From the NCBI GenBank assembly GCA_963802395.1, contig CAWDIP010000005.1, positions 851,363-915,362 on the forward strand: a stretch of DNA of 64,000 bases, in the 5' to 3' direction. Position 1 is the stretch's first letter, and every line of letters begins with the position of its first letter. The notes under the pieces are model-generated. The model made no database searches, was not told the DNA's origin, and worked only from the letters and a program-made list of their open reading frames with translations. The position numbers and the translations under genes are program-made. Shown piece after piece: positions 1-51,785 of the stretch. Source of the stretch: an uncultured Actinomycetes bacterium (GTDB taxonomy: Bacteria; Actinomycetota; Acidimicrobiia; Acidimicrobiales; Ilumatobacteraceae).

Positions 1-1095
1 GATCTGCCGGTGATCGGCGTCGGGCGGTTCAAGGATCCGTTGCAGGCGGAGCGAGCGTTGGCGGAGGGGCACTGCGACTTGGTCGGTGTCGTGCGCGGCC
101 AGATCGCCGATCCCGAGTTCGCCGCCAAGTCGAGGGCCGGTGCAACCGACGAGGTGCGGCTGTGTTTGTCGTGCAACCAGGAGTGCGTCGGACGGATGGG
201 TTTGAATCGGTGGCTCGGCTGCATCGAGAACCCTCGCACCGGCCGCGAGCACGAGTGGGCAGCGACCGACCACGTGCGCCTCACGGCCAAGCCCAAGCGG
301 GTCATGGTCGTGGGGGCCGGACCAGCAGGGCTCCAAGCCGCCATCGCAGCAGCGCGCAACGGCCACCAGGTGACGGTCTACGAGCAGCAGCCGCATGCCG
401 GAGGCCAGGTCCGCTTGGCCGCGAGCGTGCCCAACCGGGCGGAGTTCGGCGACATGATCCGCAATCAGCTGACCGAGTGCGATCGGCACGGAGTCGCCAT
501 CCACTACGGCGTCGGCGTGTGGCCGGGATTCGTCGCCGAGCAACGGCCCGATCATGTGATCGTCGCCACCGGCGCCGAGGCCGCTCGACCCTGGTGGGCA
601 CCCGCCGATGCGGCCAACGTCTGCGACGTGCGCGACGTACTCACCGGGGCGGCCGAGCCAGTCGGTCACGTCGTCGTGCTCGACGAGATCGGATTCCATC
701 ACGCCACCAGCGTTGCCGAGCTCCTGGCCGACCGCGGCTGCCACGTCGAGGTCATCACCAACGGCATGGTCGTCGGGCAGGACCTCGGCATCACGCTCGA
801 CATGGAGATGTGGTGGATGCGGGCGTCGAAGAAGGGGATCGTGCAAACGACCGATCTCGTCCCGATGGGCATGCAGGGCAGCACCCTCGACCTGCTCCAC
901 CACCCCACCGGGACGAACGTCACCCGGACTCCCGACTGGGTCGTGCTCGCAGTTCCGGCCAGCCCGGTCGAATGGCTGTACCACGATCTCACGGCGGCCG
1001 GTTGGAGCGTCGAGCGAGTCGGCGATTGCGTCGCCCCGCGTCGAGCCCACGCTGCGGTGGTCGATGGTGAGCGGGCCGGGGCGGGGATCCGATGA
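1..1095 (+). CDS. NADH:flavin oxidoreductase / 2,4-dienoyl-CoA reductase (FadH-like), 5'-truncated by window start. The C-terminal part carries the CxxCx3C Fe-S region and the FAD/NAD(P)-binding domain.
   Basis: The ORF runs in frame from position 1. Motifs seen: RLCLSCNQECVG (4Fe-4S cysteine cluster typical of the FadH/OYE-FAD family) and VMVVGAGPAGLQAAIAAARNGHQVTVYEQ (Rossmann GxGxxG). The stop overlaps the purE start (ATGA at 1092-1095). Confidence 0.8.
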   Translation, partial: DLPVIGVGRFKDPLQAERALAEGHCDLVGVVRGQIADPEFAAKSRAGATDEVRLCLSCNQECVGRMGLNRWLGCIENPRTGREHEWAATDHVRLTAKPKRVMVVGAGPAGLQAAIAAARNGHQVTVYEQQPHAGGQVRLAASVPNRAEFGDMIRNQLTECDRHGVAIHYGVGVWPGFVAEQRPDHVIVATGAEAARPWWAPADAANVCDVRDVLTGAAEPVGHVVVLDEIGFHHATSVAELLADRGCHVEVITNGMVVGQDLGITLDMEMWWMRASKKGIVQTTDLVPMGMQGSTLDLLHHPTGTNVTRTPDWVVLAVPASPVEWLYHDLTAAGWSVERVGDCVAPRRAHAAVVDGERAGAGIR

Positions 1096-3424: not shown

Positions 3425-4962
3425 TCAATGCTCGATCGGCGGTCCCGCCAGCTCGCCGTCAGGATAACGCCACGCAAGGAGTAGGCCCACGCCGAGTGCC
3501 ACGCAGGCCGATACCCGGAGCCCGACATGCCCGCCGGCAACGAACGCGTCACGCACCGATTGGAGAAAGGCGTCGGCCTGCTCGGCTCCGAGGGTGTCGG
3601 CCATCCCTCGGGCCACTCCCGCTGCCCGACCGACATTGCGTCGTGCCTGCTCCGCCAGTTCGGGAGGAAGCGTGTCGAGCGCGCCAGCTACGCGACTGCG
3701 GTAGACCGACGTCACCACGCTGCCCACGATGGCGATTCCGATCGCTCCGCCGAGCTCGCGGGTGGTGTCGTTCACGGCTGAGCCGACACCTGCCTTGTGC
3801 ATCGGAACGCTGCTCATGATCCCGCCCGTGAACGACGGCATCGTGACGGCCATTCCGGCCGCGATCACGACAAGGGTGCCGGCGATGAACACGTAGGACG
3901 TGCGCTGCCCGCACAGCGACAAGCCGAACAACCCGGCGGCGGCGAGCATCGGACCGACCGACACGCATCGTTTGACGCCGAATCGTTTGGCGATGGCTGC
4001 GGACCTCGGCGACACGATGATCATCGTCACGGCGAACGGCAAAGACGCCACCCCGGAATGCAGCGCGCTGTATCCCCTCACGTACTGCAGGAACTGGGTG
4101 AGGACGAAGAAGGTCGAGAACATCGCGAGGAACATGCACGTGATCCCGATGCTCGAGAACGTGAACCGCGGCAGCCGGAACAGACCCATGTCGAGCATCG
4201 GCTCGGCGATGCGTCGCTCCCATGCCACGAACCCGGCGAGGCCGAGCGCTGCGACGAGGAAGCTGCCGCTGACGAGACCCGAGGTCCAGCCTTTCTCGGG
4301 GCCTTCGATGATGGCGAAGAGCAACGCGCTGAAACCCACAATTGACAGCACGGCCCCGACCGGATCGAGCTTCACCGCCCGCTGCTCCTTCGACGTCGGG
4401 GCGAGCATCCAGATCATGACGAACGCGACGGCGGCGATCGGCACGGCGACGAAGAAGACCGAGCCGTACCAGAACCGCCCGAGCAGAGCGCCGCCCATGA
4501 TCGGCCCGATCGCGCCGCCGGCGCCGGCGAAGCCGGCCCACGTCGCGATGGCCTTTTGACGCTCGTGCGGCGGGAACACGCTCGTGAGGAGCGAAAGCGT
4601 CGCCGGCATGATGAGTGCGGCGCCGACTCCCATCAACGCCCGGCAGGCGATGAGGACGTTCGGCGACGACGACTGACTGCAGAGCACCGAGGCCAGCGCG
4701 AAGATCACCAGACCCAGGAGCAGCGCCCCTTTCGTCCGAAACGGTCACCGAGTGCCCCCGCGAACAGCAACAGCCCGGCGAAGACGAGTGCGTAGGCGTC
4801 GACGATCCACAGGATCTGGGTGTCCGTGGGCCGAAGTGTTTCGGCGAGCGTCGGGATGGCGACGTTCACCGAGCTCACCGACGCCACCACCAGCACGAGG
4901 CTGAGGCAGAGGGCGCCCAGGATGTACCACCGCCGCTGATAAGCGTGGGGTTCGATCCCGAA
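3425..4962 (-). CDS. MFS transporter, EmrB/QacA (14-TMS drug:H+ antiporter) family; frameshifted near 4728-4745
   Basis: Two minus-strand ORFs (4705..5373 and 3425..4708) join into one MFS protein. The N-terminal part reads MVNETMVESFGIEPHAYQRRWYILGALCLSLVLV...GDRFGRKG, then the frame changes at a CCCCTTT run and continues ALLLGLVIFALASVLCSQ...RALMGVGAALIMPATLSLL. The total length is about 510 aa, typical for this family. Confidence 0.75.
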
Positions 4963-5026
4963 GCTCTCCACCATCGTCTCGTTCACCATCGCCCCTCCAA
5001 ATTCCCGGCCGCCACCGTACCGCCAC

Positions 5027-5081
5027 CCCTTCTGATCGCGTTTGGACGGCACCTGGGGTGCGCCGAACGCACCAAGAATCG
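5027..5081 (+). repeat. copy A of conserved ~57-nt intergenic element (CCCCTTCTGATCGCGTTTGGACGGCACCTGGGGTGCGCCGAACGCACCAAGAATCG), in the 5' leader of fixB
   Basis: About 80% identical to the copies at 12774-12831 (same orientation) and 8504-8565 (inverted). It lies about 60 nt upstream of the fixB ATG. Confidence 0.6.
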
Positions 5082-5143
5082 AAGCCGGCAGCGCGGCGAC
5101 CCCGCCTGGTCGACCCGGGGAGCGGGTCGGTAGCCTCGCCTCG

Positions 5144-6048
5144 ATGCTTGCGCTCGTCCCGGTTCGAGGAGGTTCCCTGCCGGCGGGCGGAGCCGAGTCC
5201 GTCGCCGAGGCCGAGGGTCGCGCCCTCGTGGTGGGTGAGGGCGCCGTGGTCGCAGCGGAGGAGCTCGTCGGTGTCGCCCACCACGTCGATGCCATCGAAC
5301 TCGGCCACTTCTTGCCCGGCGGCGTGGGCCGCCACCCTCGCGGAGATCCTGGCGCGACGAGCGCGTCGATCATCCTGCCGGCCTGTCCCGATGGTCGCGA
5401 TCTCGCGCCTCGCCTCGCCCATCTCCTCGGGTGGCCGCTTCACGCCGGCGCAGTGGCGATCGGACGAGAGCGGGTGACCTTGGCGCGGCGCGGGGGCCTG
5501 GTGCTCGAAACGGTCGACATCGACGGGGCGTTCGTCGCCACACTCCTTCCAGGGGTGCGAGGAGTCGATCCCGGCTCCCATGCTGCGCCCATCGAAGCCC
5601 GGAGCATGCGCATTGTTGACGGGGTGCGACGACGCCGAAGTCGTCGAAGTGCTTCCGCCCGACGTGACCACCATGGATCTCTCCGAGGCGCCGAGGATCC
5701 TCGGCGGCGGGGCCGGTCTCGCTGGAGCCGAGGCATTCGACGATCTGTCCAAGGTGGCTACCGCGCTCCATGCGTCGATGGGTGCGACCCGGGTGATCAC
5801 CGACCGGGGCTGGCTGGCCCACGACCGCCAGATCGGCACGACGGGGGTGGTGGTGAACCCGAAGTTGTACCTCGCCTTCGGGATCTCGGGCGCCGTCCAG
5901 CACACGCTCGGGCCTGGGCAACCCTGATCACATCATCAGCGTCAACACCGACCCGCACTGCCCGATGATGCAACTCGCCGATGTCGCCATCGTCTCCGAC
6001 GCCAACGAAGTGCTCGAACAGCTCCGGTCGAGGTTGTGTCATGGCTGA
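5144..6048 (+). CDS. fixB: electron transfer flavoprotein alpha subunit (EtfA/FixB); two frame disruptions (~5560-5600 and ~5915-5930)
   Basis: The N-terminal domain MLALVPVRGG...VDAIELGHF...DGRDLAPRLAHLLGWPL is in one frame. The FAD domain (RILGGGAGL...ITDRGW...QIGTTG...NPKLYLAFGISGAVQH) is in a second frame. The C-terminus (IISVNTDPHCPMMQLADVAIVSDANEVLEQL) is in a third frame and ends with ATGA overlap onto fixC. Confidence 0.75.
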
Positions 6049-7345
6049 CGTCGACGTCATCGTCGTGGGCGCCGGACCTGCCGGGTCCTGTGCCGCGCTG
6101 AGCCTGGCGCGAGCCGGGCGGAGCGTCATCCTGTTGGAGCGCGGTCCGTTCCCCGGCTCGAAGAACATGTACGGCGGGGTGGTCTACCCACGGATCCTCG
6201 ATCAGCTCATCCCGAACTGGTGGGACGAAGCGCCGATCCAACGATGGGTGACCCGACGGTCGACGATGTTGATGACCCCGACCCAAGCGATGACCGTCGA
6301 CTTCCGCACGCAGGCCTGGGCGGCACCGCCCTACAACGGTGCCACCGCGTACCGACCCGACTTCGACCACTGGCTGGCATCGAAGGCTCAAGCCGAAGGC
6401 GCGCAGCTGGTCTGCTCGACCACGGTCACCGGGCTGCTGCGTGATCAGCGAACCGGACGGGTCCTCGGCGTCACGACCGATCGTCCGGATGGCGAGCTCA
6501 CAGCCGACGTCGTCATCGCGTGTGACGGCGTGAACAGCTTCATCGCCAAGGAAGCCGGCCTCTACGGCAAGGTCGACGCGGCCAACTACACGCTCGGTGT
6601 CAAAGAGACCCTCGCCCTCCCGAAAGACGTCATCGACGAACGATTCGGCGTGCGCGGCAACGAGGGGGTCGACATCGAGATCCTCGGTGGCACCGGGCAC
6701 GTGAACGGAGGGGGGTTCGTGTACACGAACCTCGACACGCTCGCGGTCGGCGTGGTGCTCAAACTGCCGAAGCTCGCCGCCCAACGCGAGCGACCGGAGG
6801 CGATCATCGCATCGTTGAAGGCCCATCCTGCGATCGCTCCGCTGGTCGAGGGCAGCGAGGTGAAGGAGTACTCCGCTCACCTCATCCCCGAAGCCGGTTG
6901 GACGATGCTCCCGACCCTCGCCACCGACGGGCTGCTCATCGCCGGGGATGCTGCTGCGCTGTGCCTCGCTGCCGGTGTGTGGCTCGAAGGAGTCAACTTT
7001 GCGATGGCATCGGGCATGTACGCCGGGCAGACGGCAGCCGCGGCCCTTCGAGCGGGCGACACCACGGCTCGCGGCCTCGGCGGCTATCGGCGACGTCTCG
7101 AGGAGACGTTCGTGCTGAAGGACCACCGCAAGCTACGGGCCGTGCCCAACCTGGTCCTCAGCGATCGCGTGCAGCATCAATACCCCTCGCTGGTCAACAA
7201 CGTTGTCGAGCGCATGTTTCGAGTCGACAATCCGTTGCCGAAGCCGGGACTCCGGCGAATCCTCAGCCAGGAGCGCAAGCGGGCGGGCGTCAAGATCAAG
7301 GACCTCGCCGTCGATGCGTGGACCGGGATCCGGAGCTTCGGATGA
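6041..7345 (+). CDS. fixC: electron-transfer flavoprotein:quinone oxidoreductase, FAD-dependent (FixC)
   Basis: About 434 aa. MADVDVIVVGAGPAGSCAALSLARAGRSVILLERG is the dinucleotide-binding fold, and overall similarity is to FixC/ETF-QO. The stop overlaps the fixX start. Confidence 0.85.
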   Translation: MADVDVIVVGAGPAGSCAALSLARAGRSVILLERGPFPGSKNMYGGVVYPRILDQLIPNWWDEAPIQRWVTRRSTMLMTPTQAMTVDFRTQAWAAPPYNGATAYRPDFDHWLASKAQAEGAQLVCSTTVTGLLRDQRTGRVLGVTTDRPDGELTADVVIACDGVNSFIAKEAGLYGKVDAANYTLGVKETLALPKDVIDERFGVRGNEGVDIEILGGTGHVNGGGFVYTNLDTLAVGVVLKLPKLAAQRERPEAIIASLKAHPAIAPLVEGSEVKEYSAHLIPEAGWTMLPTLATDGLLIAGDAAALCLAAGVWLEGVNFAMASGMYAGQTAAAALRAGDTTARGLGGYRRRLEETFVLKDHRKLRAVPNLVLSDRVQHQYPSLVNNVVERMFRVDNPLPKPGLRRILSQERKRAGVKIKDLAVDAWTGIRSFG

Positions 7346-7659
7346 AGATCACCACTTCGAGCGGCGATCGCGACTGGCCCGAGATCTCGTTCGAGGACCG
7401 CATGGCCACGGCGGAGTTCCGAGTGCACGAGCGGCCCCACATCACGGTCGACAGCGATGTCTGTCGAAGCTGCACCACGCAGGAGTGCACCGTCGCGTGC
7501 CCGGCCAACCTCTTCATCCCCACCGCAGCCGGTGGCATCCTGTTCAACTACGAGCATTGCTTCGAGTGCGGCACCTGCTATCTGGTGTGCAACAAGGAAG
7601 GCGCCATCACCTGGTCCTACCCGGAGGGTGGGCACGGCGTGGTGTTCAAACGCACATGA
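7342..7659 (+). CDS. fixX: ferredoxin-like protein FixX
   Basis: 105 aa. MKITTSSGDRDWPEISFEDR...CRSCTTQECTVACPANLF...CFECGTCYLVCNKEGAITWSYPEGGHGVVFK matches the FixX 4Fe-4S ferredoxin-like family. It is translationally coupled to fixC and fixA. Confidence 0.8.
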   Translation: MKITTSSGDRDWPEISFEDRMATAEFRVHERPHITVDSDVCRSCTTQECTVACPANLFIPTAAGGILFNYEHCFECGTCYLVCNKEGAITWSYPEGGHGVVFKRT

Positions 7660-8480
7660 CCATCGGCGTCTGCATGAAGTGGGTCGATCGACGACCCGAG
7701 TTGCACGAGAACTCCGTAGCACCCACCGATGCCCGGTTCGCTGGCGTGTCAGCCGCCGATCAGTCCGCGTTGGAGCTCGCTCTGCGCACGGCAGCGGCGT
7801 GGGACGAGGATGTCGTGGCAGTGACCGTCGGACCGTCGGCGGCCATCGCCGTGCTGCGCGATGCACTCGCAGCAGGAACCCACCGAGCCGTGCACGTCGT
7901 CGCACCGGCTGAGCTCGACAGCGCTGGAGTGGCGAGCGTCATCGCGCCCGTCGTCGCCGACTGTTCACTCGTGTGGTGCGGCGACTACAGCCTCGACCGC
8001 GGAACCGGTTCGGTCCCAGCGTTCCTCGCGGCGCACCTCGGTGCCGCCCAGGCGCTCGGGCTGGTGCACGTCGAGCTCGGCTCGGACCGGACCGTGATCG
8101 GGTTGCGCCGTCTCGATGGCGGCCGGCGAGAACGGCTTCGCATCACCGGACCAGCCGTGATCTCCGTCGAAGGCCACGTGGCACCGCTCCGTCGAGCGTC
8201 ACTCGCGGCCGCGATCGCCGCCGGCCGCGCCGGGGTCGTCGAGCTCCATCCCGCGCTCCCAGCCGGCGATCCACGACGCTCCTCGCGGCCTTTCCGTCCG
8301 CGCGCCCGAGTGCTCGCTCCTCCGAGCGGAAGCACCGCCCTCAGCCGGATCGAAGTGCTCACCGACTCGACCGGTAGTCCCACCCGCGGCGAAGTCGTGA
8401 CGCTGGCACCGAGTCAGGCCGCCCACCACATCCTGCAGACCCTGGCCGACTGGGGCTACCTACCCCCCGACGCGATCTGA
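7656..8480 (+). CDS. fixA: electron transfer flavoprotein beta subunit (EtfB/FixA)
   Basis: 274 aa. MTIGVCMKWVDRRPEL...VVAVTVGPSAAIAVLRDALAAGTHRAVHV...CSLVWCGDYSLDRGTGSVPAFLAAHLG matches the ETF beta family. ATG 7656 overlaps the fixX stop. Confidence 0.8.
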   Translation: MTIGVCMKWVDRRPELHENSVAPTDARFAGVSAADQSALELALRTAAAWDEDVVAVTVGPSAAIAVLRDALAAGTHRAVHVVAPAELDSAGVASVIAPVVADCSLVWCGDYSLDRGTGSVPAFLAAHLGAAQALGLVHVELGSDRTVIGLRRLDGGRRERLRITGPAVISVEGHVAPLRRASLAAAIAAGRAGVVELHPALPAGDPRRSSRPFRPRARVLAPPSGSTALSRIEVLTDSTGSPTRGEVVTLAPSQAAHHILQTLADWGYLPPDAI

Positions 8481-8583: not shown

Positions 8584-10140
8584 ATGGGAGGGAGCCCGGG
8601 GTCGACGTGGGGCCGCGGTGCGGTGTTGGCCGTTGCGGGGGTGACGTTGGCGGTGGGCGTGGCTCGGGCATCGGCTGCTGATGAGGCCCACGATGTCGAG
8701 GCCCAGCGCCCCACCCAGCCCGACAGCGGGGTGAGCGACGCGGGAACCGGACCTGCCTCGACGGCCACGGTCGTCGCCGAGGCGGCTCAACTGGAGCCGC
8801 TGGCGGATCCGGCGGGCTTCCAGCAGCCGTGGGGCGACACGGTGGAGGGACTGCTCACGTTCCGGGGCAATCCGACCCGCTCGTACCACGGCGAGGGCCC
8901 GGTTCCGGCCGAACCGGTGGTCCGGTGGCGGTACCCCGACGATCGCATGTGCAGTCTGTCGACCGAGTTCAACCAGACCCGAGAATGGTGCGGCACCGGC
9001 TGGACCGGGCAACCCGCCGTGTTCGAGCGAGGCGGGCGCACGTGGGTGGTGTTCGGTGCCTACGACGCCAAGATCCACTTCGTCGACGGCGCGACGGGCG
9101 AAGAGATCCTCCCCCCGCTCGAGACCGGCGATCTCGCCAAGGGAGCCATCACCGTCGACCCCGACGGCTACCCGCTCGTCTATGCCGGTTCGCGTGACAA
9201 CGAGCTGCGGGTCATCGCCATCGACCGACCCGAACCGACGGTGCTGTGGAGCCTCGACGCCGCCGACGCCGGCGAAGGGCGATGGAACGACGACTGGGAC
9301 GCGGCGCCGTTGGTGGTCGCCGACCACCTCGTCGAAGGTGGCGAGAACAGTCGGCTCCACGTGATCGCGCCTCACCGCGCGCTACGACGGCCGACGGCTC
9401 GGTGGCGGTCGCTCCTCGGCTGGTGTGGAGCGCCCCCGGCTGGGACGACCAGCTCCTGGCCGACCTCGGCGACCACCGGGTGAGCTTCGAGAGCTCGGTG
9501 ATGATGCTCGGCGACATCGCCTATCTCGCCAACTCGGGCGGTCTCGTCCAGGGATGGGACCTGTCGTCGTTGCGAACGGATGCCCCGACACCGCAGCGGG
9601 TGTTGCGCTTCTGGACCGGCGACGACACCGACGCCACCATCGTCGGCGACGCCGAGGGCTTCCTGTACGTGGGGGTCGAGGTCGACCGCGACACCGAGCG
9701 CGGGCCACGCCATCGGCCAGTTGCTGAAGCTCGATCCGCGCCGCCCGGAGGCGCCGGTGGTCTGGTCGGTCGACGTCGACGGCGGCGACAACAGCGGCAG
9801 CTGGTCCACGGCCGCCGTCGTGGGCGACACGGTGATCTGGCCCACCAAGCCGGGCCGAGTCTTCGGGATCGATCGCGCAGTCGGGCTCGACCCGCTGGAC
9901 CCTGCAACTGCCCGGCCCGATGATCGGTTCGCCGACCGTCGTCGACGGCACGATGGTGCTCGGCGACGCCCGAGGAGTCCTCCACGCGTTCACGCTCGGC
10001 GACGGAACGCTGCCGCCCGACCGAGGCCTGGCAGATCACGCTCGGTGGCACCATCGAGTCGACCGCGGCGGTCTGGCGCGGCTCGATCTACGTGGGCACC
10101 CGCGACGGCCACCTCTTCTCGATCGGTGGTCGGATCGTGA
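8584..10140 (+). CDS. secreted PQQ-like / BamB-like beta-propeller repeat protein; at least 4 frame disruptions
   Basis: A signal-peptide-like N-terminus (AVLAVAGVTLAVGVARASAA) is followed by repeated propeller-blade motifs (WVVFGAYDAKIHFVDGATGEEI, PLVYAGSRDNELRVIAIDRPEPTVLWSL, DIAYLANSGGLVQGWDLSS, DTVIWPTKPGRVFGIDRAVG, SIYVGTRDGHLFSIGG). These are spread over 4-5 successive reading frames between 8584 and 10140. The proposed 3' end assumes a TGA at 10138-10140 overlapping the mftE GTG. Confidence 0.6.
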
Positions 10141-10808
10141 GGCTCGGGCCGGCAACGTGGTCGGAGCTCGAGTCCGATGCGCGGCCCATCGTGGTGCTGC
10201 CATTGGGCTCGTGCGAGCAGCACGGGCCGCATCTCCCGCTCGACACCGACACCCGCATCGCCGTCGCGCTCGCCGAACGCCTCGCCGCCCAACGCGGACG
10301 GGGTGCTCGTTGCGCCGCCGCTCGCGTTCGGCGCGAGCTGGGAACATCACGGGTTCCCCGGGCTGCTGTCGCTCGACGGCGGAGTTGCTCGCCGAGCTGC
10401 TCGTCGAGCTCGCCCGTTCGGCCGACTGGTCCGGCGGGCTGGTGTTCGTGAACGGCCACGGCGGCAACCTGCACGGCGTTCGCGACGCCGTTCGCCGGAT
10501 CACGTTCGAGGAGCGCCGGGTCATGTCGTGGTCGCCCCAGATCCCGGGCGAGCGATGCCCACGCCGGACGCACCGAGACCTCGATCATGCTCGCCCTTGA
10601 CCCCGAGCTGGTCCGCTCCGATCGGCTGGCTCACGGGTGGACCGGGGACCTGACGGCGGTCCAGGCGCACGGCGTCGCGGCAGTGAGCGAGCAGGGCGTG
10701 CTCGGCGACCCGACGGCAGCGACCGCCGCGGAGGGCCACGAGGTGCTCGACGACCTCACCGCCGATCTGCTCGCCCGCTTCGACGAGTGGTGCCGGCCCC
10801 CACCGTGA
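10137..10808 (+). CDS. mftE: creatininase-family protein, mycofactocin system MftE-like; 2-3 frame disruptions
   Basis: PIVVLPLGSCEQHGPHLPLDTDTRIAVALAERLAA matches the EQHGPHLPLDTDT signature of MftE. Further fragments (LVAPPLAFGASWEHHGFPG, LVFVNGHGGN, and DAHAGRTETSIMLALDPELV...GVAAVSEQGVLGDPTAATAAEG in a later frame) complete the family pattern. The stop at 10806-10808 overlaps the mftF GTG. Confidence 0.7.
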
Positions 10809-12258
10809 GATACGTCGTCGATCCGGCACTCGCTCGGTGGAGGAGCGCGCGATCGTCATCGGCGGATCGCCGCTCACGCTGTTCCGGCTCACGGTCGCCG
10901 GAGCCGAGTGGTGACGGCCATCCAGGGCGGCGATCCGCTGCCGCCCGGGCACGAGCGACTCACCGATCGACTGCTCGACGCCGGAGCGATCCACCCGGCC
11001 CCGGAGCCCGGCGACGGCGCCCGGCCCGAGGATGTGACGGCGGTGATCCCCGCGGTACGCGACTGGCCCCGACGATCTCGGCCGGCTCGTCGAGGGGCTC
11101 ACGGCCGAGGGAGTACGTCGTTGATCGTCGTCGACGACGCATCCCCGATCCCGCTCACTCGCCGCATCGCCGGCGCGCTGCTCGGTGGAGATGATCCGGC
11201 TCGACCGACAACTCGGGTCCGGGCGGTGCCCGCAACGCCGGTGCGCAGCGCGTGGAGACCCCGTTCGTGGTGTTCGTCGACGCCGACACCGAGCTAACGC
11301 CGGGATGGTTGGCACCCCTGCTCGCGCACATGGGCGACGCACGGGTCGGGCTCGTCGCGCCACGGGTCGAGCCGACCCCGGGGCACGGCGACCGGTTGGC
11401 GCGATTCGAGGCATGGCGGTCGCCCCTCGACCTCGGTCCCGCTCCCGCCCGAGTGCGCGCCGGGAGCCGGGTGAGTTACGTGCCGGCCGCCGCGGTCGCT
11501 CGTGCGGGTGGCGGCCTTTCGGGCGGTCGGCGGGTTCGACCCCGAGCTTCGCTTCGGCGAGGACGTCGATCTGGTCTGGCGGCTCGACGAGGCGGGCTGG
11601 CGCTGCCGGTACGAGCCGGCGTCCGTCGTGACCCACGGACCCGACCCGAGCTGCGGGCGTGGGTCCGTCAGCGATACGAGTACGGCACCTCGGCGGCTCC
11701 GCTCGCCGGTCGCCACCCCGGTGCCCTCGCTCCGGTCCGGGTCAGCGGCTGGAGCGCCCTCGCATGGGGCGTCGGGCACGCTGGTGTCGCCGCTCGCCGG
11801 CATCGCCATCGGTGCGGGCACGACCGCTCGCCCTGGTCCGCAAGCTCCGGCCGATGGAGCATCCGTTCGCCGAGGCGTCCCGGCTCGGCCGGCCTCGGCA
11901 ACCTGTTCGCCGGACGCATCCTCGCCGCCGCCCTGACCCGGGCCTGGTGGCCGATCGCGCTCGTGGCCGCGCTGTGTCACGCCGCGCCCGCCGGGTCGTC
12001 ATCTTGGCCGCGCGTGCTGCCGACCCTGTTCGAGTGGGCGACGCGACCGACCGGCGCTCGACCCGGTCTCGGCGCTCGGTCTCCGCATGCTCGACGACGT
12101 GGCCTACGGCGCCGGCGTGTGGGCCGGCATGGCCGCGCCACCGCACGCTCGATCCGCTCCGCCCCGATCTCGCGGAACTGGCCCGGCAACTCGGGACGGC
12201 GCAGCGAGCCGACCGGAGCGAGCTCGATCAGGAGCTGAGCTGGCAGCCGCTCGGATGA
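10805..12258 (+). CDS. mftF: family-2 glycosyltransferase, mycofactocin system MftF-like; multiple frame disruptions
   Basis: Fragments collinear with mycobacterial MftF occur across at least 5 frame switches: [53 protein letters not shown]...[34 protein letters not shown]...GLVAPRV...[13 protein letters not shown]...[43 protein letters not shown] and the C-terminal [10 protein letters not shown]. Confidence 0.65.
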
Positions 12259-12822
12259 GGTCGCTGCAGTCGACGCACACCGACTCGGGAACGATCCCCC
12301 ACCGCATCAGCCGGGCGAAGATCACGCAGCCGAGGCAGAATCCGAAAGCCGCTTCGAGGAACGCCGCCCCGGTGAGCCCGGCGATCAGCACGCAGTGCGA
12401 CGGCCGGTGGGCGCCGCGCAGCCACGGCGACCGAGGCCCGAGGCCGTGAAGGCGCGCACCGATGCCCTGGGCGAACCGCTTCGGGCGGGCCGGCCACCAG
12501 GCGGTGCGCGCCACCGAACCGGGGCGACGACGACCTGGGTGACGAACTGGCCGAGCGGGCTCAGCGTCGGGCCGGTGAGGACCCGGGCGAGGAATCCGTA
12601 GGTCAGCGGGAACAGCACCCAACCCGATCCAAGGCCGAGGAAGGCAACGGCCTGCAGCACGACGCCGCTGGCCACCAGCCGGGCCGAGGTCTCGTTGACC
12701 GTGTTGGGGAACCCGAAGACACGCTTCACGCCCGCCACCCTACCCCAATACCCGACCAACTCAGTCAACTTTCCCCCTTCTGATCGCGTCTTGACCGGCA
12801 GACGGGGGGCGACCGAACGCAC
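12228..12822 (-). CDS. DUF4395-family small membrane protein (C-terminal CxxC motif); probably one frame disruption
   Basis: KRVFGFPNTVNETSARLVASGVVLQAVAFLGL...WVLFPLTYGFLARVLTGPTLSPLGQFVTQVVVAP is in one frame. It continues in another frame as KRFAQGIGARL...AFLEAAFGFCLGCVIFARLMRWGIVPESVCVDCSD. The ends are approximate, and the 3' end is convergent with and overlaps mftF. Confidence 0.45.
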
Positions 12823-12831
12823 CAGGAATCC
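12774..12831 (+). repeat. copy B of the conserved ~57-nt intergenic element, immediately upstream of the alanine-racemase-fold gene
   Basis: CCCCCTTCTGATCGCGTCTTGACCGGCAGACGGGGGGCGACCGAACGCACCAGGAATCC. It ends about 15-25 nt before the gene start. Confidence 0.6.
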
Positions 12832-12845
12832 GGCTGGCGGCTAGC

Positions 12846-13815
12846 GTGCCGCGCCGATGGCCCTCGTGCTCACCGTGGAGCAGCCGGTGTGGTGGGATCA
12901 CGTCACTCGAGGTCGCCGAGCGGCTCGGCGACCGGCTCGTCCCCGTCATCAAGGGCAACGGCTACGGCCTCGGCCGGGCGACCTGGACGCGGTCGGTGGC
13001 CGAACTCGGGCTCGAGCAGGTCGCGTCGGAACGGTCGCACGAACTGCTCGACGTCACCGCGGCGACTCCGCCAGCTCGTCCTCACCCCAGCCTCGACGAC
13101 CCGATCGACGGTGTTCCCGACGACGCCGTGCTGACCGTCGGTTCGCGCTCCACAGCTCGAAGCCGCACGTGCTCATCGGCGGTCCGCTGGCGATCAAGCT
13201 GCGATCCTCGATGCAGCGCTACGGGGTCGCCGCCGACGAGCTCCCAACGATGCTCGATCGCGGTCCCTGCGGCTCGACCGCTTCGTACTCCACCTCCCCC
13301 TCGCCGGCACCGACGACGACCGCGTGGCCGAGATCGAGGCATGGCTCGCCCACCTCCCCGGCAGGTATCGACGCTCTCGGTGAGCCACCTCTCGATCGAC
13401 TCGTTCGAGGCGCTCGCCGCCCGCCACCCCCGACGGCGGTTCCGCAGCTCCGCATGGGCACCGCTCTGTGGCACGGCGACAAGTCGGCGTTCCACCTCGG
13501 GTGCCGAGTCGTCAACGAGGTACGGCCCGTCACCGACGGCGCCCGCGCCGGGTATCGGCAGGTTCCCGTGCCGGTCAGCGGCCACCTGGTGATGATCGGC
13601 GGCGGGCTCTGCCCACGGGCGTCAGCCCACTCCCCGACGGGCGAAGCCCCTTCCACTTCGATCACCAGCGACTCGAGCTCCTCGAAGGGCCCCACATGCA
13701 CACCTCGATCGCTCTCGTCCCCGAGGGCTGCGCCTGCCCGACGAGTCGGCGAGGTCGTCGACGTCCAGCGTCCGCTCACCCAGGTGCAGCCCGACCGATC
13801 GTGTGGCTCCGATGA
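12846..13815 (+). CDS. alanine racemase N-terminal-domain (fold-type III PLP) protein; at least 3 frame disruptions
   Basis: LVPVIKGNGYGLGRA is the PLP-lysine motif of the Ala_racemase_N family. Later fragments (HVLIGGPLAIKLRSSMQRYGV, LRLDRFVLHLPLAG, LSVSHLSIDSFEAL, MGTALWHGDKSAFHLGCRVVNEVRPVTDGARAGYRQVPVPVSGHLVMIGGG, DGRSPFHFDHQRLELLEGPHMHTSIALVP) lie in alternating frames. Confidence 0.55.
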
Positions 13816-13845
13816 ACGCGGCCGCCGACCTCGCCGAGCCCGGTC

Positions 13846-14967
13846 GTGCTTCCCGGATTCGACGTGGTCCGCGCCACCGCACTTCATCGGTGTCGTGGTG
13901 ATGAACTACCACGGCTACCTCAACGGCGGGAGCGGTCCGAACCCCGTCGTTCGCCGAGCGGGTGTTCGATCCGTTCGTCGGGCGTGCTGTCCACCCGCTT
14001 CGCCGCCACGTTCGTCACCGTCGCCGGTGTGGGCGTGGTGCTGCTCACGAACCGCTCACGCCGGTCGGGCGACGCCGAAGCCCGCCGCCGAGACCGGTGG
14101 CGGTTGATCCGGCGCGGCGCGTTCCTGCTCGCCCTCGGGTACGTGCTCGACTGGATCTGGGCAGGCACGATCCTGTTCTTCTACGGCGCCTACTTCATCG
14201 GTGGCGGCGCTGCTTTTCACCCTGCGGATCCGCTGGCTGGCCCTCATCGCATTCGTCAGTGCCATCGCGGCGTGGGGGGTGCAGTGGTGGTCGCTCGACC
14301 GGACCCTGAATGGTCACGACACGTGGTGGCTCATCTGGAGCGGCCGGGCATCGGGCGAGGCGGCCTCGATGCGAAGCCCTCGCGACGCCGTCTTCGACGT
14401 GTTCCTGCACGGCACCCATCCCGCTCTTCCCGTGGCTCACGTTCTTCTGCTGCGGAATGATCCTGGGCCGCCTGATCCCTCACCTCACCCGGTTTCGCCG
14501 CCCGCTCATCGTCGCCGGCGTGGGCGCGGTCGGCGTTGGTTACGCCGCGGCCACCCTCTTACGCCGGGCATACGAGTTCCCGACCTCGAACCTCGAGTTC
14601 CACCTCCAGGAGCTGTCGCACACCGACCCCTTCAGCCGACAGCCGCTGTACGTGCTGACCACGTTGGGTTCGTCGGTCGTGGCGACCCTCGGCATCGCCT
14701 GGCTCGCCGACCGCTACCCCACCTCGACACCGGTCGATGTGCTGCGCCGCTCCGGGCGGCTCACCTTCACGATCTACATCGCTCCACGTCCTGGTGTTCA
14801 GAGCAGTGGTCGACGTGATGGGTTGGGTCGGCCCGACCGGGCTCGACACCGCGCTGGCCTTCGCGCTGGTGGTGTTCGGGCTGGCGACGATCGCCGGCGC
14901 CTGGTGGCAACGCGTCCGTCGGGCTGGGCCCGGTGGAACGCGATCTACCGCCGAGTTCGGGGGCTGA
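13846..14967 (+). CDS. DUF418/DUF1624-family polytopic membrane protein; several frame disruptions
   Basis: The N-terminal GFDVVRATAL-IGVVVMNYHGYLNGG motif is followed by LSTRFAATFVTVAGVGVVLL, AFLLALGYVLDWIWAGTILFFYGAYFIGG, LTFFCCGMILGRL...LIVAGVGAVGVGYAAATLL, LTFTIYI and HVLVFRAVVDVMGWVGPTGLDTALAFALVVFGLATIAGAWW. These lie in 4 frames. Confidence 0.5.
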
Positions 14968-15014
14968 TCGCTCGCCGGCTCGACCCGCGCGGCAGCTCGA
15001 GCTCGGCCGGTGGT

Positions 15015-15981
15015 TCACTCCGAGAAGGTGTCGCACTGATCGCTGGAGCCGGTCTCGAACCCCCGACGGAACCAGGTCACGCGCTGCTCGGAGGTGCCGT
15101 GGGTGAACGAGTCGGGGTCGACCCGGCCGCCCGACTGCTTCTGGATCCGATCGTCACCGACCGCCGCGGCGGCATTGATGGCCTCGTTGATCTCGTTGGC
15201 GTTGTCGAACTGGTCGCGGGCGTTGGCGTCGTGGGCCCACACCCCGGCGAGGCAATCGGCCTGGAGCTCGAGTCGCACCGACAAGGCGTTGGCCTGCGAC
15301 GGGTTGCGTTGCTCGGCCTTCGTCGGACCTGGTCGCTGATCCCGAGCAGGTTCTGGAGGTGGTGCCCGTACTCGTGGGCGACGATGTACTGCGCGGCGAG
15401 ATCGCCCGTGGCTCCGAACTGGTCCTGGAGCTGGACCAGGAAGTCGAGATCGAAGTACACCTTCGAGTCGGCCGGGCAGTAGAACGGGCCCATGTTGGCG
15501 ACGGCCGATCCGCAGCCGGTGGTCGGTCGCCGCCGCTGAAGAAGACGGTCTTGGCGAACTCGTACTGACGGCCGGCCGCCGTGAACGTGCGGTCCCAGAA
15601 CTCCTGCACGTCTCGCTGCCCGCCGCAGATGATCTGGGCGATCTCGGTGTCGCACGGTCCCGAGCCGGCGGCGCCGCTTCCGGCGGCAGCCTCGGCTCGG
15701 CGTCGGGCGCCAAGCCCGACCGATGGCACATCGGCGGCTCGACGGCCCCGGTGCCGGCGCCGCGCGAGCAACTTGGGCAGGAACGCCACGGCGAGCACGA
15801 GGATCAGACCGAGCAGCCCGCCGCCGGCCTTCATCGGGATCCCGAGGCCTCCGCCGCCACCGCCACCGCCGCCCGACCCATCGGGAACGGGAAGCCGACT
15901 GCCTCCTCCGCCCCCGCCGCCACCCTGGCCGCGGCGGTCTTCGATCATCGAGTCGTTCCCGGACTCGCGGATCTTCGTCAC
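15015..15981 (-). CDS. YpfJ-family putative neutral zinc metallopeptidase (Zn_peptidase_2); 2 frame disruptions
   Basis: A Gly-rich N-terminus plus TM segment (GGGGGGGGSRLP...GGGGGGGGGLGIPMKAGGGLLGLILVLAV). Then FYCPADSKVYFDLDFLVQLQDQFGATGDLAAQYIVAHEYGHHLQNLLGI (the HExxH-type HEYGHH zinc motif), QANALSVRLELQADCLAGVWAHDA, and the C-terminal GDDRIQKQSGGRVDPDSFTHGTSEQRVTWFRRGFETGSSDQCDTF. Confidence 0.7.
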
Positions 15982-16023
15982 GTGTGCTCCGTTCCTGGGG
16001 CGAATAGCTGGGTCGACGGATGG

Positions 16024-17488
16024 TCAGATGGCGACGGCAACGTACTTGGTGACCAGGTACTCGTCGATACCGAACCGGCCACCTTCGCGACCGTACCCGG
16101 AGTGCTTGACCCCGCCGAAGGGCACGTTGGCGGCCGAGATCATGCCGGTGTTCATGCCCGATGATGCCGTGCTCCAGACCCTCGGCGACCCGGAAGAGGC
16201 GCGGCGTGGTCGCGGGTGTGGGCGTAGGCGGCCAGTCCGAACGGGGTCGAGTTGGCCATGCGCGAGCGCCTCGTCCTCGGTGTCGAACACGGTGAGCCCG
16301 AGCACCGGACCGAACGTCTCCTCCTGGGCGATGCGCATCGGTGGCGTCGATCCCGGTGAGCACCGTCGGGTCGAAGAAGTTGCCGCCGCTCGTAACTCGC
16401 CGCCCGTCAGCCGAGTGCCACCGACGACGCAGCGCGGCGCCCTTGGCGACGGCGTCGCTGCACGTGTCCTTCGGCCTTGGCCAGGCGCGTCGGCATCGAT
16501 CAGCGGGCCGACCATCACGCCCGGCGGTGAGCCCGTTGCCGACCGAGAGCGCCGGCCACCTTGGCCGCGATCCGGGCGGTGAACTCCTCGGCGATCCCCC
16601 GCTGCACGTAGACCCGGTTCGTGCACACGCAGGTCTGGCCGGCGTTGCGGAACTTGCAGGCGATGACCTGATCGACCGCGATGTCGAGATCGGCGTCGTC
16701 GAAGACGAGGTACGGCGCATGTCCGCCGAGCTCGAGCGACAAGCGCACGACCTGCTCGGCGGAGGCCTTGATCAGCAGCCGCCCGACCTCGGTCGACCCG
16801 GTGAAGCTGACCTTGCGCACCCGACCGTCGGTGAACAGGGTGTCGGAGACCTCGGCGGCCCGGTCGGAGGTGACCACGCCGAGCACGCCGGCCGGAAGCC
16901 CGGCATCGAGCAGGGCCTGGGCGACCGCCAACGCGGTGAGCGGGGTCGACTCCGCCGGCTTGATCACCATCGTGCAGCCAGCGGCCAGCGCCGGGGCGAT
17001 CTTGCGGGCCAGCATCGCCGCGGGGAAGTTCCACGGCGTGATGGCAGCGGTCACGCCGATGGGCTGGCGCATCACGAGCACCCGATGGTCGGGGCGCTGG
17101 GCCGGGACGATCATGCCTTCGATCCGCTCGGCTTCTCCGGCGAACCACTCGAAGAAGCTCGCCGAGTACTCGACTTCTCCTTTGGCCTCGGCCAGCGGCT
17201 TGCCCTGCTCGGCCGGTGAGCGTGCGACCGATCTCGTCGGCCCGCTCCCGCAGCAACGCTGCGGTCCGCAGCAGCAGCCGGGCCCGTTCCCGAGCGACCG
17301 TTGCCCGCCAAGCCGGGAAGCGCAGCCGCGGCCGCGTCGATCACGGCTGTGGTGTCGACGTGCTCCTGCGTCGGCGACCGAGGCGATGACCTCGCCGGTG
17401 GCCGGATTGGTGACGGGTATGTCTCGCCGCTCTGGGCGGCGACCCACGCCCCGTCGAGCAGGATCGTTGCGGGGCCGGGTGCACTCAT
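16024..17488 (-). CDS. NAD(P)+-dependent aldehyde dehydrogenase (succinate-semialdehyde dehydrogenase GabD-like); about 3 frame disruptions
   Basis: ILLDGAWVAAQSGETYP / VTNPATGEVIASV / EWFAGEAERIEGMIVP...ITPWNFPAAMLARKIAPALAAGCTMVIKPAESTPLTALA...SFTGSTEVGRLL...LELGGHAPYLVFDDADLD...ACKFRNAGQTCVCTNRVYVQ. The C-terminal part is in another frame: QEETFGPV...NTGMISAANVPFGGVKHSGYGREGGRFGIDEYLVTKYVAV. Confidence 0.75.
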
Positions 17489-17545
17489 GCCCGGGAGGGT
17501 ACCCGGCGGGCGCGTGTCGCCCGAACGATCAACGATCCGGAACGA

Positions 17546-18667
17546 TCAGCGTCCGGCGACGAGATCGTCGAGGTGCGTCCCGAGGGCACGGCCCGCAGCC
17601 GCGTCGGTGCACCAGGATTCGCCGAACACCCGCGCCCCCTCGTTCAACCGCGTCCTGAGTGCCTCATCGGTCCACATCGCCTCGATCGCCGTCGCCAGAC
17701 CGACCTCGTCGCCCGGGGAGTGAACGAGTGCGTTCACGTCGGGGATGATGTAGTCCTCGACACCGGGTCGCATGGTGGACACGAGCGCCCGGCCGTGTCG
17801 GTAGGCCTCGACCATCGTCACGAGACCGGCGTTGGCTCCACCGGTGGTGAGCGGCACGACGTTGACGCGGGCCCGGCGCACCAGACGGTGGATGTCGTCC
17901 TTGGGCAGCTGATCCAGGATCACGACCGACTTCGGCGGCGTCAGCCCGCTCAGCACGCGGGGTCCGGCGAGCACCAGGGTGCGGTACCCGAGCCGATCGA
18001 TGGCCTTGAAGAACGTGCCGTAGTCGCGGAAGCCCGAACCCGTTGCGAACACGAACGGCTCGTCGTCGTCGATCTCGTCCGTGGCAACTCCGCCGCCGTA
18101 CTGGAGCGGCGCGAACCGGAAGCGCTCGGCCGGCAGATCGAGCCGATCGCTGTAGAGCCCGATCTCGCGGGTGGAGTGGACGATGAATCGGTCGACAGCG
18201 CGCAGGCTCGTGCGGGCCTGCAGCAGCCGTCCGCCCTCGCCGAGCTCGGTGTTGAAGAACCACGAGAGCAACGGAACGTCGCGTCGGCTGAGCCGCTTCT
18301 GCACGGCAACCGTGGCGGCCAGCTGCGGGAACACCGTGACGATGCCCCCTTCGGTGGCGGCCAGAGCTCGCCGCCCTTGCCGGGCGTACTGGACCCACTC
18401 ACCGGGGCCCGAGACCGGGCGCTTGCGCTGGTGCCAGCTGCGTTCCTGGCCGACGCGAGGCACTTTGGTGAACCGATGACCGTCGCCCGGCACGAAGTCG
18501 GTCAGCCAACGATCGTGAGCGGTCTCGAAGAACGGCGCGGCGATCGCCCAATGGTGCACCGGCGTCGCCGAGCTGTTCGTCACGTCGCTCCTGGTCGTCA
18601 TGCGAGTGAGCACGAAGCCGACCGTACTGTCAGCCAACGCGGCCATGACTTGGGCGGATCGGACCAA
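17546..18667 (-). CDS. GT-B fold glycosyltransferase (family 1/4-like)
   Basis: Intact 373-aa ORF. The C-terminal domain FATGSGFRDYGTFFKAIDRLGYRTLVLAGP...VNVVPLTTGGANAGLVTMVEAYRHGRALVST is typical of GT4-type retaining glycosyltransferases. Confidence 0.65.
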   Translation of the reverse strand: MVRSAQVMAALADSTVGFVLTRMTTRSDVTNSSATPVHHWAIAAPFFETAHDRWLTDFVPGDGHRFTKVPRVGQERSWHQRKRPVSGPGEWVQYARQGRRALAATEGGIVTVFPQLAATVAVQKRLSRRDVPLLSWFFNTELGEGGRLLQARTSLRAVDRFIVHSTREIGLYSDRLDLPAERFRFAPLQYGGGVATDEIDDDEPFVFATGSGFRDYGTFFKAIDRLGYRTLVLAGPRVLSGLTPPKSVVILDQLPKDDIHRLVRRARVNVVPLTTGGANAGLVTMVEAYRHGRALVSTMRPGVEDYIIPDVNALVHSPGDEVGLATAIEAMWTDEALRTRLNEGARVFGESWCTDAAAGRALGTHLDDLVAGR

Positions 18668-18713
18668 ATCGGGCGAATCTTCGCCGATCCGAGCACCGAG
18701 CGTACCGACTCAC

Positions 18714-20249: not shown

Positions 20250-20260
20250 CGCAGCGCGGT

Positions 20261-21999: not shown

Positions 22000-22003
<4 letters not shown>
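21092..22003 (-). CDS. carbohydrate ABC transporter permease (UgpA/MalF-like); frame-disrupted
   Basis: N-terminus MKRAAT...STMRCDNAGKNCRSNGWDQYVDVFRSDEFQHALAVTVKFAL. Central part FIWANLGFTFIVVTAGLQGVPKELYESAFVDGAGGWRRFTNVTVPMLAPTLLF. C-terminus AFQAYGEFDLLTDGGPAPQNSTTSLTYL. These are spread over 3 frames, and the ATG overlaps the ATPase stop. Confidence 0.6.
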
Positions 22004-23014
<1,011 letters not shown>

Positions 23015-23109
23015 CCTAGTGCGGTGCTCCCACCCGTTCTTCGAGTCGACACCGAGGCTTCACCCAGGCCGGTCGATCTCGACTCGTCGCGGAGCGTCGA
23101 CCTAGCCTG

Positions 23110-38755: not shown

Positions 38756-38796
38756 CTCTGGCGACCTGCGCTTCGGGCCGCGCGTACCATGGCCTC

Positions 38797-41526: not shown

Positions 41527-41558
41527 GTGACCAACGTAACGCGAACGGGAGAGGGACG

Positions 41559-51688: not shown

Positions 51689-51785
51689 TCGCCCACCCAG
51701 CGTGCACCCCCCTCACGCAACGTCGATAGGCCTGCTACGATCCGTAGTTGCACCGGAGAATCGGCATGCGACCGGGTCGGCCGAA

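Follow-up and report, generated by a model that had tools for sequence, protein, structure and literature searches.

The DNA stretch analysed here, 64 kb long and referred to below as the window, carries a set of mycofactocin-related genes on its plus strand, and all coordinates are given in window numbering. The window start falls within the gene for a mycofactocin-system FadH/OYE family oxidoreductase 2 (OYE_2), and the left window edge truncates this gene to its 3′ part (364 codons, 1..1095, + strand). Inserts comprising purE, purK, a DedA-family gene, and an MFS gene separate it from a four-gene module on the + strand, which consists of etfA/fixB for a mycofactocin-associated ETF alpha subunit (5144..6048), a fixC-type gene for an FAD-dependent, ETF-quinone oxidoreductase-like oxidoreductase (6041..7345), a fixX-type gene for a ferredoxin-like protein (7342..7659), and etfB/fixA for a mycofactocin-associated ETF beta subunit (7656..8480). 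The last three are intact, and etfA has four indels in the deposited sequence. The stops and starts of the module overlap, by 8 nt at etfA/fixC and by ATGA at fixC/fixX and fixX/etfB. The module is followed on the same strand by a β-propeller gene (8584..10140, ATG at 8584), by mftE for the mycofactocin precursor peptidase of the creatininase family (10137..10808, GTG start at 10137 and TGA stop at 10806–10808), and by mftF for the mycofactocin GT2 glycosyltransferase (10805..12238, GTG start at 10805, 3′ end uncertain by about 20 nt). A propeller and four ETF/Fix genes had already been named as the upstream neighbours in a preliminary description of this DNA, and that part stands. Convergent with mftF is a gene for a DUF4395 membrane protein (12242..12739, − strand), located by tblastn and a frameshift-aware alignment to its orthologue in the relative L001; AlaRac, DUF418, and Zn-peptidase genes come next.

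Profile comparison places etfA and etfB in families curated for the mycofactocin system. The corrected etfA product scored 375.2 bits on the mft_etfA model NF038209 (cut-off 240), and the intact etfB product scored 231.8 bits on the mft_etfB model TIGR04503 (cut-off 200). In frameshift-aware alignment with the orthologues of the relative L083, etfA shows 187 identical residues out of 295 with four indels and no stops, while etfB shows no indels. The fixC product is assigned at the family level only (323 bits on NF007542 FixC, below the cut-off of 610); it is 79% identical, with no indels, to its L083 orthologue, which has the Pfam domain ETF-QO_FixC_C. The best NCBIfam match of the fixX product is NF011993 FixX, at 49 bits and below the cut-off of 166. 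The partial OYE gene, which encodes the C-terminal 364 residues, reached 451 bits on TIGR03997 over profile positions 284–643 (full-length cut-off 793, next family 211), and is 80% identical to residues 288–662 of the 666-residue orthologue in L083/L084, itself scoring 955 bits. NF038209, TIGR04503, TIGR03996, and TIGR03997 are bioinformatic models of hypothetical-equivalog or equivalog type. The synteny between mycofactocin and ETF genes is already reflected in the names of NCBIfam models: the window etfA and etfB pass the cut-offs of the mycofactocin-associated ETF models, the association seen in our census is the one that these models encode, and among the mycofactocin-system OYE 1/2 models (TIGR03996, TIGR03997) the partial gene is best matched by OYE_2. 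Since such dedicated models exist, we dropped the idea that the ETF-mftEF synteny is new. Our literature search found no paper linking mycofactocin with ETF. The preliminary description had counted the fix genes as unrelated neighbours; etfA and etfB match curated mycofactocin markers.

As deposited, mftE lacks an uninterrupted reading frame, being broken by three +1 insertions, and its uncorrected fragments scored 64, 23, 43, and 58 bits on the MftE model TIGR03964. Removal of three single bases (near 10296, 10381, and 10544) gave a corrected MftE of 253.2 bits on this model (cut-off 172, E = 2e-75, profile positions 1–221 of 228), while the next-best family, creatininase, gave 97 bits against its cut-off of 235. 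Corrected MftE aligns end to end with P0001 over 222 codons (75% identity, three +1 insertions, no stops), and all four metal/catalytic motifs of the creatininase fold (EQHGPH, DTD, GHGGN, and HAGxTETS) are present and aligned with those of P0001. The MftE signature previously noticed in this creatininase homologue is borne out, with EQHGPHLPLDTDT from 10215 and DAHAGRTETS from 10554. Corrected MftF scored 406.3 bits on TIGR03965 (cut-off 280, E = 2e-121, profile positions 8–466 of 467) and contains a Pfam Glycos_transf_2 match of 60.8 bits; its next-best family, EpsD, reached 76 bits against a cut-off of 370. Alignment with the corrected MftF of L001 gave 286 identical residues out of 441 with 16 indels (ten +1 and six +2) and no stops. 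The GT2 is collinear with MftF, as had been described, and mftF overlaps mftE through a 4-nt GTGA at 10805–10808. Both proteins thus score above rather than below the trusted cut-offs of their families. A chance match to MftE and MftF is excluded, because in the profile search the uncorrected fragments match TIGR03964 and TIGR03965 and no other model, and because the corrected products reach the E-values given above. Judged by these profile matches, mftE and mftF are genuine late-step mycofactocin genes.

The gene between etfB and mftE encodes a propeller that is predicted to be membrane-anchored or secreted; its sequence has an N-terminal hydrophobic segment and then a low-complexity linker. 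Compared with the L001 orthologue, 337 of 482 residues are identical, with five single-base insertions (near 9382, 9395, 9711, 9880, and 10016) and no stops. The TGA stop at 10138–10140 is part of a GTGA (10137–10140) that overlaps the mftE start. The translational coupling to mftE claimed earlier holds as far as the motif is concerned, but the stop is reached only after one further 1-nt correction near 10125–10137; as deposited, the propeller frame reads into mftE. A true propeller-MftE fusion was considered, the two frames being continuous as deposited, and was rejected: a stop ends the propeller frame at the junction in 9/9 relatives, and in the window the GTGA motif is preserved one frame off. 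Specifically, the propeller matches Pfam PQQ_2 (PF13360) with 41.4 bits (gathering score 27.6) in its C-terminal 120 residues only, and scores 36.7 bits on the PQQ-dehydrogenase model TIGR03075 against a cut-off of 480, and 43 bits on the BamB equivalog TIGR03300 against a cut-off of 285, so that its membership is at the fold/repeat level only. We further examined the AlphaFold model of P0241, which is 76% identical to the window propeller (pLDDT 90.5, residues 1–31 below 50). Its best PDB matches by Foldseek are Cake8, BamB, YxaL, and tetrathionate hydrolase (E about 1e-15, TM-score up to 0.89 on the target), while among quinoprotein structures PedH appears only at about rank 43 with a TM-score of 0.48 on the target. 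Comparison with NCBIfam, Pfam, and PDB structures revealed neither a catalytic nor a cofactor signature. As modelled, the protein adopts an eight-bladed BamB/YxaL-like fold and is not a PQQ enzyme; the former label "PQQ-like" is apt for the PQQ_2/BamB repeat family and misleading for an enzyme. It shares the fold and the repeat match with BamB and YxaL (PDB 3prw and 7dxn), but is not a BamB orthologue and is unlike the PQQ dehydrogenases. To our knowledge, the Gram-positive-type cell of Acidimicrobiia is without BAM machinery.

No mftA, mftB, mftC, mftD, or mftG was found in the 64-kb window by tblastn with Acidimicrobiia and Mycobacterium queries, and a six-frame regex search for the MftA C-terminus (CGVY*, DGMC) gave no match in the window, in line with the earlier observation that mftABCD is missing there. 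The window is asymmetric, spanning 8.6 kb upstream of the propeller and 52 kb downstream. We compared it with a census of 82 MftE loci, of which 53 are comparable Acidimicrobiia loci, outside the Mycobacteriales and with at least 4.5 kb of upstream sequence. The Mycobacteriales loci have a compact mftABCDEFG, and mftF lies directly downstream of mftE in 73 of all 82 loci. The etfA-fixC-fixX-etfB module lies upstream of mftE-mftF on the same strand in 32/53 loci, eight of which also carry the propeller, while mftC occurs within 10 kb in only 6/53, and no mftG occurs within 10 kb in any non-Mycobacteriales census locus. OYE_2 precedes the ETF/Fix block in about 20 other loci; in two loci (L071 and L064) mftBC-OYE_1-OYE_2 are contiguous; and DUF4395 directly follows mftF in the same orientation in 31 of the 69 loci with enough sequence, making it a recurrent convergent neighbour. 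In dozens of Acidimicrobiia genomes, taken at species level, the linkage of mftE-mftF to the ETF/FixCX module is tighter than that to mftABC. A syntenic relative (ERZ25039524 contig_7133, 3.57 Mb) has the order of the window, with OYE_2 upstream of etfA-fixC-fixX-etfB-propeller-mftE-mftF-DUF4395-AlaRac-DUF418-Zn-peptidase, and carries mftA (PF23709), mftB, and mftC on the same strand 15.1 kb upstream of the propeller; no mftD could be located in this contig, the closest syntenic relative. Because mftABC lies at this distance there and the window opens in OYE_2, the mftABC of the source genome probably lies about 3–8 kb left of the window edge, a placement made by synteny with relatives, the window covering only the distal part of the locus. 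The earlier proposal of a split cluster was right in that mftE-mftF stands apart from mftABC in the syntenic relative, but this is the usual Acidimicrobiia architecture rather than an anomaly. The term "orphan" does not fit, as mft_etfA and mft_etfB are directly upstream of propeller-mftEF and OYE_2 stands at the window start.

All these findings make it very likely that the window holds the distal portion of a mycofactocin locus of the ordinary Acidimicrobiia type, neither orphan nor relic, whose broken frames are assembly consensus errors. The preliminary description was correct that both mftE and mftF are frame-disrupted as deposited, and it raised the possibility of a decayed remnant. That mftE, mftF, and their neighbours are pseudogenes of a mycofactocin system being lost is improbable, although the frameshifts are present in the deposited assembly, where the truncated 299-residue product of 8584–9483 is public as P0317 (946,672-bp contig), mftABCD is absent from the window, disruption is heaviest in mftF, and this gene is imperfect in relatives too, that of L001 carrying one frameshift and that of L002 scoring below the cut-off; some real erosion of mftF in the group is conceivable from these two cases. 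The pattern of the damage speaks otherwise. The indels number about 86, are one or two bases long, and in roughly 80% of cases are single-base insertions; the corrected frames contain no in-frame stop. The indels are patchy rather than uniform, densest in mftF (about 1 per 90 bp), and confined to about 4.7–5.9 kb and 9.4–23 kb, affecting etfA and all genes between 9.4 and 21 kb: etfA 4, propeller 5, mftE 3, mftF 16, DUF4395 2, AlaRac-like 12, DUF418 8, Zn-peptidase 2, aldehyde dehydrogenase 14, ABC binding protein 14, permease 5, and MFS 1, with none in DedA, fixC, or etfB. Thus the same damage affects about 12 unrelated genes over about 12–14 kb with clean flanking stretches, and the 23–64 kb region shows long uninterrupted frames in a codon-position frame model trained on the window's own composition (an assumed GC3 of 0.93 had over-called non-coding sequence). 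The broken genes show no excess amino-acid divergence: their identity to orthologues is 56–85%, which is also the range of the intact DedA, fixC, and etfB, and even with 14 indels the aldehyde dehydrogenase reaches 85%. In bacterial pseudogenes, base losses are generally held to outnumber gains, the opposite of the insertion excess seen here. We judge the mftE indels to be technical because all neighbouring genes are affected alike. These data point to consensus errors in the deposited assembly rather than gene decay, and the organism itself probably carries these genes intact.

It is less probable still that the pair is an unrelated paralogous module, in which a creatininase hydrolase and a GT2 act on a non-mycofactocin substrate, perhaps with the propeller, as the preliminary description had offered as an alternative. 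The lack of a precursor peptide or radical-SAM gene in the window and the unusual propeller gene translationally coupled upstream of mftE would fit such a module. Against it, both proteins pass equivalog cut-offs while the next families fall far below theirs, the pair is flanked by mft_etfA, mft_etfB, and OYE_2, the orthologous pair of the syntenic relative shares its strand with mftABC at a distance of 15 kb, and propeller-linked mftE genes are interleaved with ordinary ETF-linked ones in the MftE tree (rough neighbour-joining on 220 residues). This reading is already largely refuted. Compatible with the distal-locus explanation is the suggestion that some Acidimicrobiia use the propeller as a working mycofactocin accessory, for instance as an extracytoplasmic partner to the ETF/MftEF operon, the opposite view being a passenger insertion. 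The propeller/mftE/mftF arrangement does recur in other genomes: the propeller sits between etfB and mftE in 8/53 counted loci (9/82 overall), and a search with the propeller gave 34 metagenome contigs, three of which show the same placement; in every propeller-type locus the propeller stop overlaps the mftE start or directly adjoins it (TGATG, GTGA, or a stop after which mftE follows in frame); and these loci are scattered over the MftE tree, although the tree behind this scattering is the rough one named above. We nevertheless regard an accessory role as unlikely. The other 31/34 metagenome contigs carry the homologue (39–58% identity) without mftE/F or ETF nearby, and the four non-mft loci inspected are flanked by a luciferase-like monooxygenase, AlkZ, a two-component system, and an M3 peptidase; the family as such was thus rejected as mft-specific. 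Moreover, the etfB-mftE junction also receives an MFS gene, a transposase, and an enoyl-CoA hydratase, and the profile and structure comparisons gave the propeller no catalytic or cofactor signature.

In the Acidimicrobiia-type locus, the genes run in the order mftA-mftB-mftC, OYE_1, OYE_2, etfA-fixC-fixX-etfB, and mftE-mftF, with lineage-specific genes between the blocks. In mycobacteria, MftE releases the MftC-modified Val-Tyr core from MftA to give AHDP, and MftF attaches a β-1,4-glucan chain (PMC7491314). By homology, MftE of this locus would release the same core as AHDP and MftF would add the β-1,4-glucan chain, while the ETF alpha and beta subunits with FixC and FixX presumably shuttle electrons between mycofactocin-dependent metabolism and the quinone pool. 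Compared with the mycobacterial mftA-B-C-D-E-F(-G) cluster (Rv0691A-Rv0697; PMC3023750, PMC7491314, PMC11778925), the window has mftE and mftF at equivalog level, adjacent, in the same order, and with a 4-nt overlap; in contrast, mftEF here stands apart from mftABC, by 15 kb in the syntenic relative, and in the window it is preceded by the ETF/FixCX module and the propeller, with no mftD or mftG near. The module has the same four-gene composition as the bifurcating FixABCX/EtfABCX complexes (Thermotoga maritima EtfABCX, PMC10734219) and is translationally coupled, but its order is B-C-X-A, FixC and FixX score below the generic cut-offs, and the ETF subunits belong to a separate mycofactocin-associated family.

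By itself this locus matters little: it adds one more example to a curated system, from an uncultured member of the Acidimicrobiia whose assembly contains a low-quality stretch. It illustrates that apparent orphan genes can arise from a window edge, and that dense frameshifts in one stretch, common to all its genes, should suggest assembly error before gene decay. We tentatively propose, as a possibility we hold to be doubtful, that in Acidimicrobiia the ETF/FixCX module, joined with mftE-mftF in a single transcription unit, could re-oxidise mycofactocinol to the quinone pool, or reduce mycofactocin via bifurcation, and so fill the role that MftG has in mycobacteria, with the membrane-anchored propeller as a further component in one sub-lineage; our literature search found no paper on an ETF-based mechanism of mycofactocin recycling. 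If true, this route would bear on cofactor recycling in the approximately 25% of mftC-positive genomes that are without mftG (PMC11778925). For organisms without MftG, the mycofactocin-ETF connection is a concrete lead on cofactor recycling that can be tested.

The + strand carries etfA/fixB (5144-6048), fixC (6041-7345), fixX (7342-7659) and etfB/fixA (7656-8480), with overlapping stop and start codons throughout, followed after 103 nt by the beta-propeller gene (ATG 8584 to TGA 10138-10140), mftE (GTG 10137 to TGA 10806-10808) and mftF (GTG 10805 to about 12238); the DUF4395 gene (12242-12739, - strand) is convergent. The GC content of the window is 66-74%, and the nearest protein relatives are from Acidimicrobiia, chiefly Ilumatobacteraceae MAGs. 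The previously cited MftE motifs are found at 10215 and 10554. Even the uncorrected ORF fragments match TIGR03964 (MftE) and TIGR03965 (MftF) only, far above chance, confirming that the pair is real. After indels of 1 and 2 nt were undone by alignment to an orthologue, MftE reaches 253 bits against TIGR03964 (cut-off 172) and MftF 406 bits against TIGR03965 (cut-off 280), while the runner-up families fall far under their own cut-offs. By this curated standard the two predicted proteins belong to the mycofactocin families. The preliminary description had also considered a creatininase/GT2 module acting on a different substrate, and had named scores under the MftE/MftF cut-offs as evidence against its own reading; since both scores came out above, the different-substrate module is not supported. 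By analogy with mycobacteria, where MftE frees the MftC-cyclised Val-Tyr core as AHDP and MftF attaches a beta-1,4-glucan chain (PMC7491314), both enzymes may have the same roles here.

The frame disruptions were mapped by a purpose-written protein-to-DNA aligner allowing 1- and 2-nt skips, with orthologues from related contigs as queries. MftE is full length (222 codons, 75% identity to the orthologue P0001) with three single-base insertions; the propeller (70% identity to its orthologue in comparison locus L001) has five, and a sixth must be assumed right ahead of its stop; and MftF (65% identity to L001 MftF) has about 16 indels. Neighboring genes are similarly affected, including those for an alanine-racemase-like protein (12 indels), DUF418 (8), an aldehyde dehydrogenase (14, yet 85% identity to its orthologue), an ABC binding protein (14), a permease (5), a Zn-peptidase (2), DUF4395 (2), etfA (4) and an MFS protein (1), whereas DedA, fixC and etfB have none. 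Roughly 86 indel events were counted in all, about 80% of them +1 insertions, and the corrected frames of all aligned genes, those of MftE, the propeller and MftF included, contain no stop codons. A codon-position frame model gives long unbroken frames at 1-4.7 kb, 6.0-9.4 kb and about 23-64 kb. These clean stretches flank an error-dense patch (about 4700-5900 and 9380-23300), in which single-base indels, for the most part insertions, run at roughly 0.4-1.2% and the public gene calls fragment each gene. The indels belong to the deposited assembly, since a truncated 299-aa propeller product of 8584-9483 is itself public (P0317, from a 946,672-bp contig). Decay had earlier been proposed as one possibility; the damage, however, consists of indels only, is biased to insertions, lacks nonsense codons, comes with no raised amino-acid divergence and hits all genes of the stretch regardless of function, which points to a poorly polished stretch with consensus error rather than to decay of mftE/mftF. 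Among related MAGs, the L002 mftF (10681-11889, 402 aa) reaches 88 bits on TIGR03965 over its N-terminal part only, and the L001 mftF has one frameshift at about 11665; mftF is imperfect in several of them, through either assembly error or real erosion.

The neighbors of the pair are mycofactocin markers by NCBIfam, and the pair is not an orphan. On the models for mycofactocin-associated ETF subunits, the product of etfB reaches 232 bits with the beta model (TIGR04503, cut-off 200) and corrected etfA 375 bits with the alpha model (NF038209, cut-off 240). The first ORF of the window, a truncated OYE_2 gene (1-1095, +), matches the C-terminal half of TIGR03997 (mycofactocin system FadH/OYE oxidoreductase 2) at 451 bits and shares 80% identity with a complete orthologue, for which the score is 955 bits. 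The closest fully syntenic relative, ENA ERZ25039524 contig_7133 (3.57 Mb), has the order OYE_2 ... DedA ... etfA-fixC-fixX-etfB-propeller-mftE-mftF-DUF4395-AlaRac-DUF418-Zn-peptidase, with mftA, mftB and mftC on the same strand 15.1 kb upstream of the propeller. Given this synteny, and since position 1 is codon 288 of OYE_2, mftABC can be expected some 3-8 kb outside the left edge. The absence of mftABCD holds for the 64 kb but is probably an edge effect, as the window extends just 8.6 kb 5' of the propeller; of the earlier interpretation, "split" stands. In the same relative (L084), OYE_1 (11283-13115, 703 bits) directly follows mftC, and an alcohol dehydrogenase of the TIGR03989 family, labelled NDMA-dependent by NCBIfam and reportedly tied to mycofactocin by Haft, lies 4-6 kb upstream of mftA (3954-5569, -) in two fragments of 294 and 81 bits, suggesting that this long-read assembly has a frameshift as well.

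We then compared 82 loci with MftE homologues, 80 from species-representative genomes and two being contexts of individual database proteins. Mycobacteriales loci have the compact mftABCDEFG cluster. Among the 53 non-Mycobacteriales loci whose upstream sequence spans 4.5 kb or more, etfA-fixC-fixX-etfB lies directly 5' of mftE-mftF on the same strand in 32, the propeller is present in 8, mftC lies within 10 kb in only 6, and mftG was found in none. The etfB-mftE gap is below 150 nt in 18 of all 41 loci with an etfB match upstream of mftE, about 20 loci have OYE_2 ahead of the ETF block, and mftBC-OYE_1-OYE_2 are contiguous in L071 and L064. Additionally, a convergent DUF4395 membrane-protein gene immediately follows mftF in 31/69 related loci; this conservation suggests a possible link to the mftEF unit, one recorded by no curated family. 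The spacer blocks of the locus are very fluid. Here purE and purK (1092-2746) are inserted between the OYE_2 and DedA genes, a point occupied by a BNR-repeat gene in the syntenic relative (L083) and by TetR, thioredoxin and MFS genes in L001/L002.

The propeller protein comprises an N-terminal hydrophobic segment, probably a signal peptide or membrane anchor, a low-complexity linker and about 420 propeller residues. Its Pfam PQQ_2 match is limited to the last 120 of these, placing it at repeat level only, and it scores 37 bits on the PQQ-dehydrogenase model (cut-off 480) and 43 bits on the BamB equivalog (cut-off 285). Modelled with AlphaFold, a homologue of 76% identity (pLDDT 90.5) best matches eight-bladed propellers, namely designed Cake8, BamB, YxaL and tetrathionate hydrolase, with quinoproteins ranking far lower. 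The propeller/mftE/mftF arrangement does recur, the propeller stop abutting or overlapping the mftE start in 9/9 relatives that carry it, and propeller-type loci are dispersed over a rough MftE tree; both would fit a functional link with mycofactocin. However, the etfB-mftE junction also takes an MFS gene, a transposase or an enoyl-CoA hydratase, and of 34 metagenome contigs bearing a propeller homologue, 31 carry neither mftE/F nor the ETF genes, the neighbors being unrelated in the four inspected. We consider such a link unlikely; the most economical reading is that an extracytoplasmic propeller gene of wide occurrence was inserted here in a lineage-specific manner. Homologues of 49-54% identity on metagenome contigs of about 51% GC (L094, 9665-12420; L091; L087) have a two-component system upstream and, downstream, a luciferase-like monooxygenase and an AlkZ-like glycosylase, a context common to those contigs and without relation to mycofactocin.

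Elsewhere, the window contains two TIGR03086/TIGR03083 genes (DinB-like, mycothiol-dependent maleylpyruvate-isomerase family; 38732-39337 and 49866-50394), a carotenoid-cleavage-type dioxygenase gene (40170-41537, -) and an ACC deaminase gene (45929-46955; TIGR01274, 557 bits). A + strand run of large ORFs at 51700-64000 (798, 1074, 604, 484 and 723 aa), whose sole Pfam match is DUF6603 in the 1074-aa protein (54261-57485, 326 bits), appears to be an uncharacterised system of several genes for large proteins.

The locus is an ordinary further example of a curated system: NCBIfam has models for the association of mycofactocin with ETF and with OYE proteins. These families are not listed in Haft 2011 (PMC3023750), and our literature search found no paper joining mycofactocin to ETF/FixABCX or to Acidimicrobiia. 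In mycobacteria, MftG couples mycofactocin oxidation to respiration, and mftG is missing from about 25% of mftC-positive genomes (PMC11778925). The tight ETF/FixCX-mftEF operon of those Acidimicrobiia that have no mftG nearby is therefore a reasonable candidate for a route of cofactor recycling.
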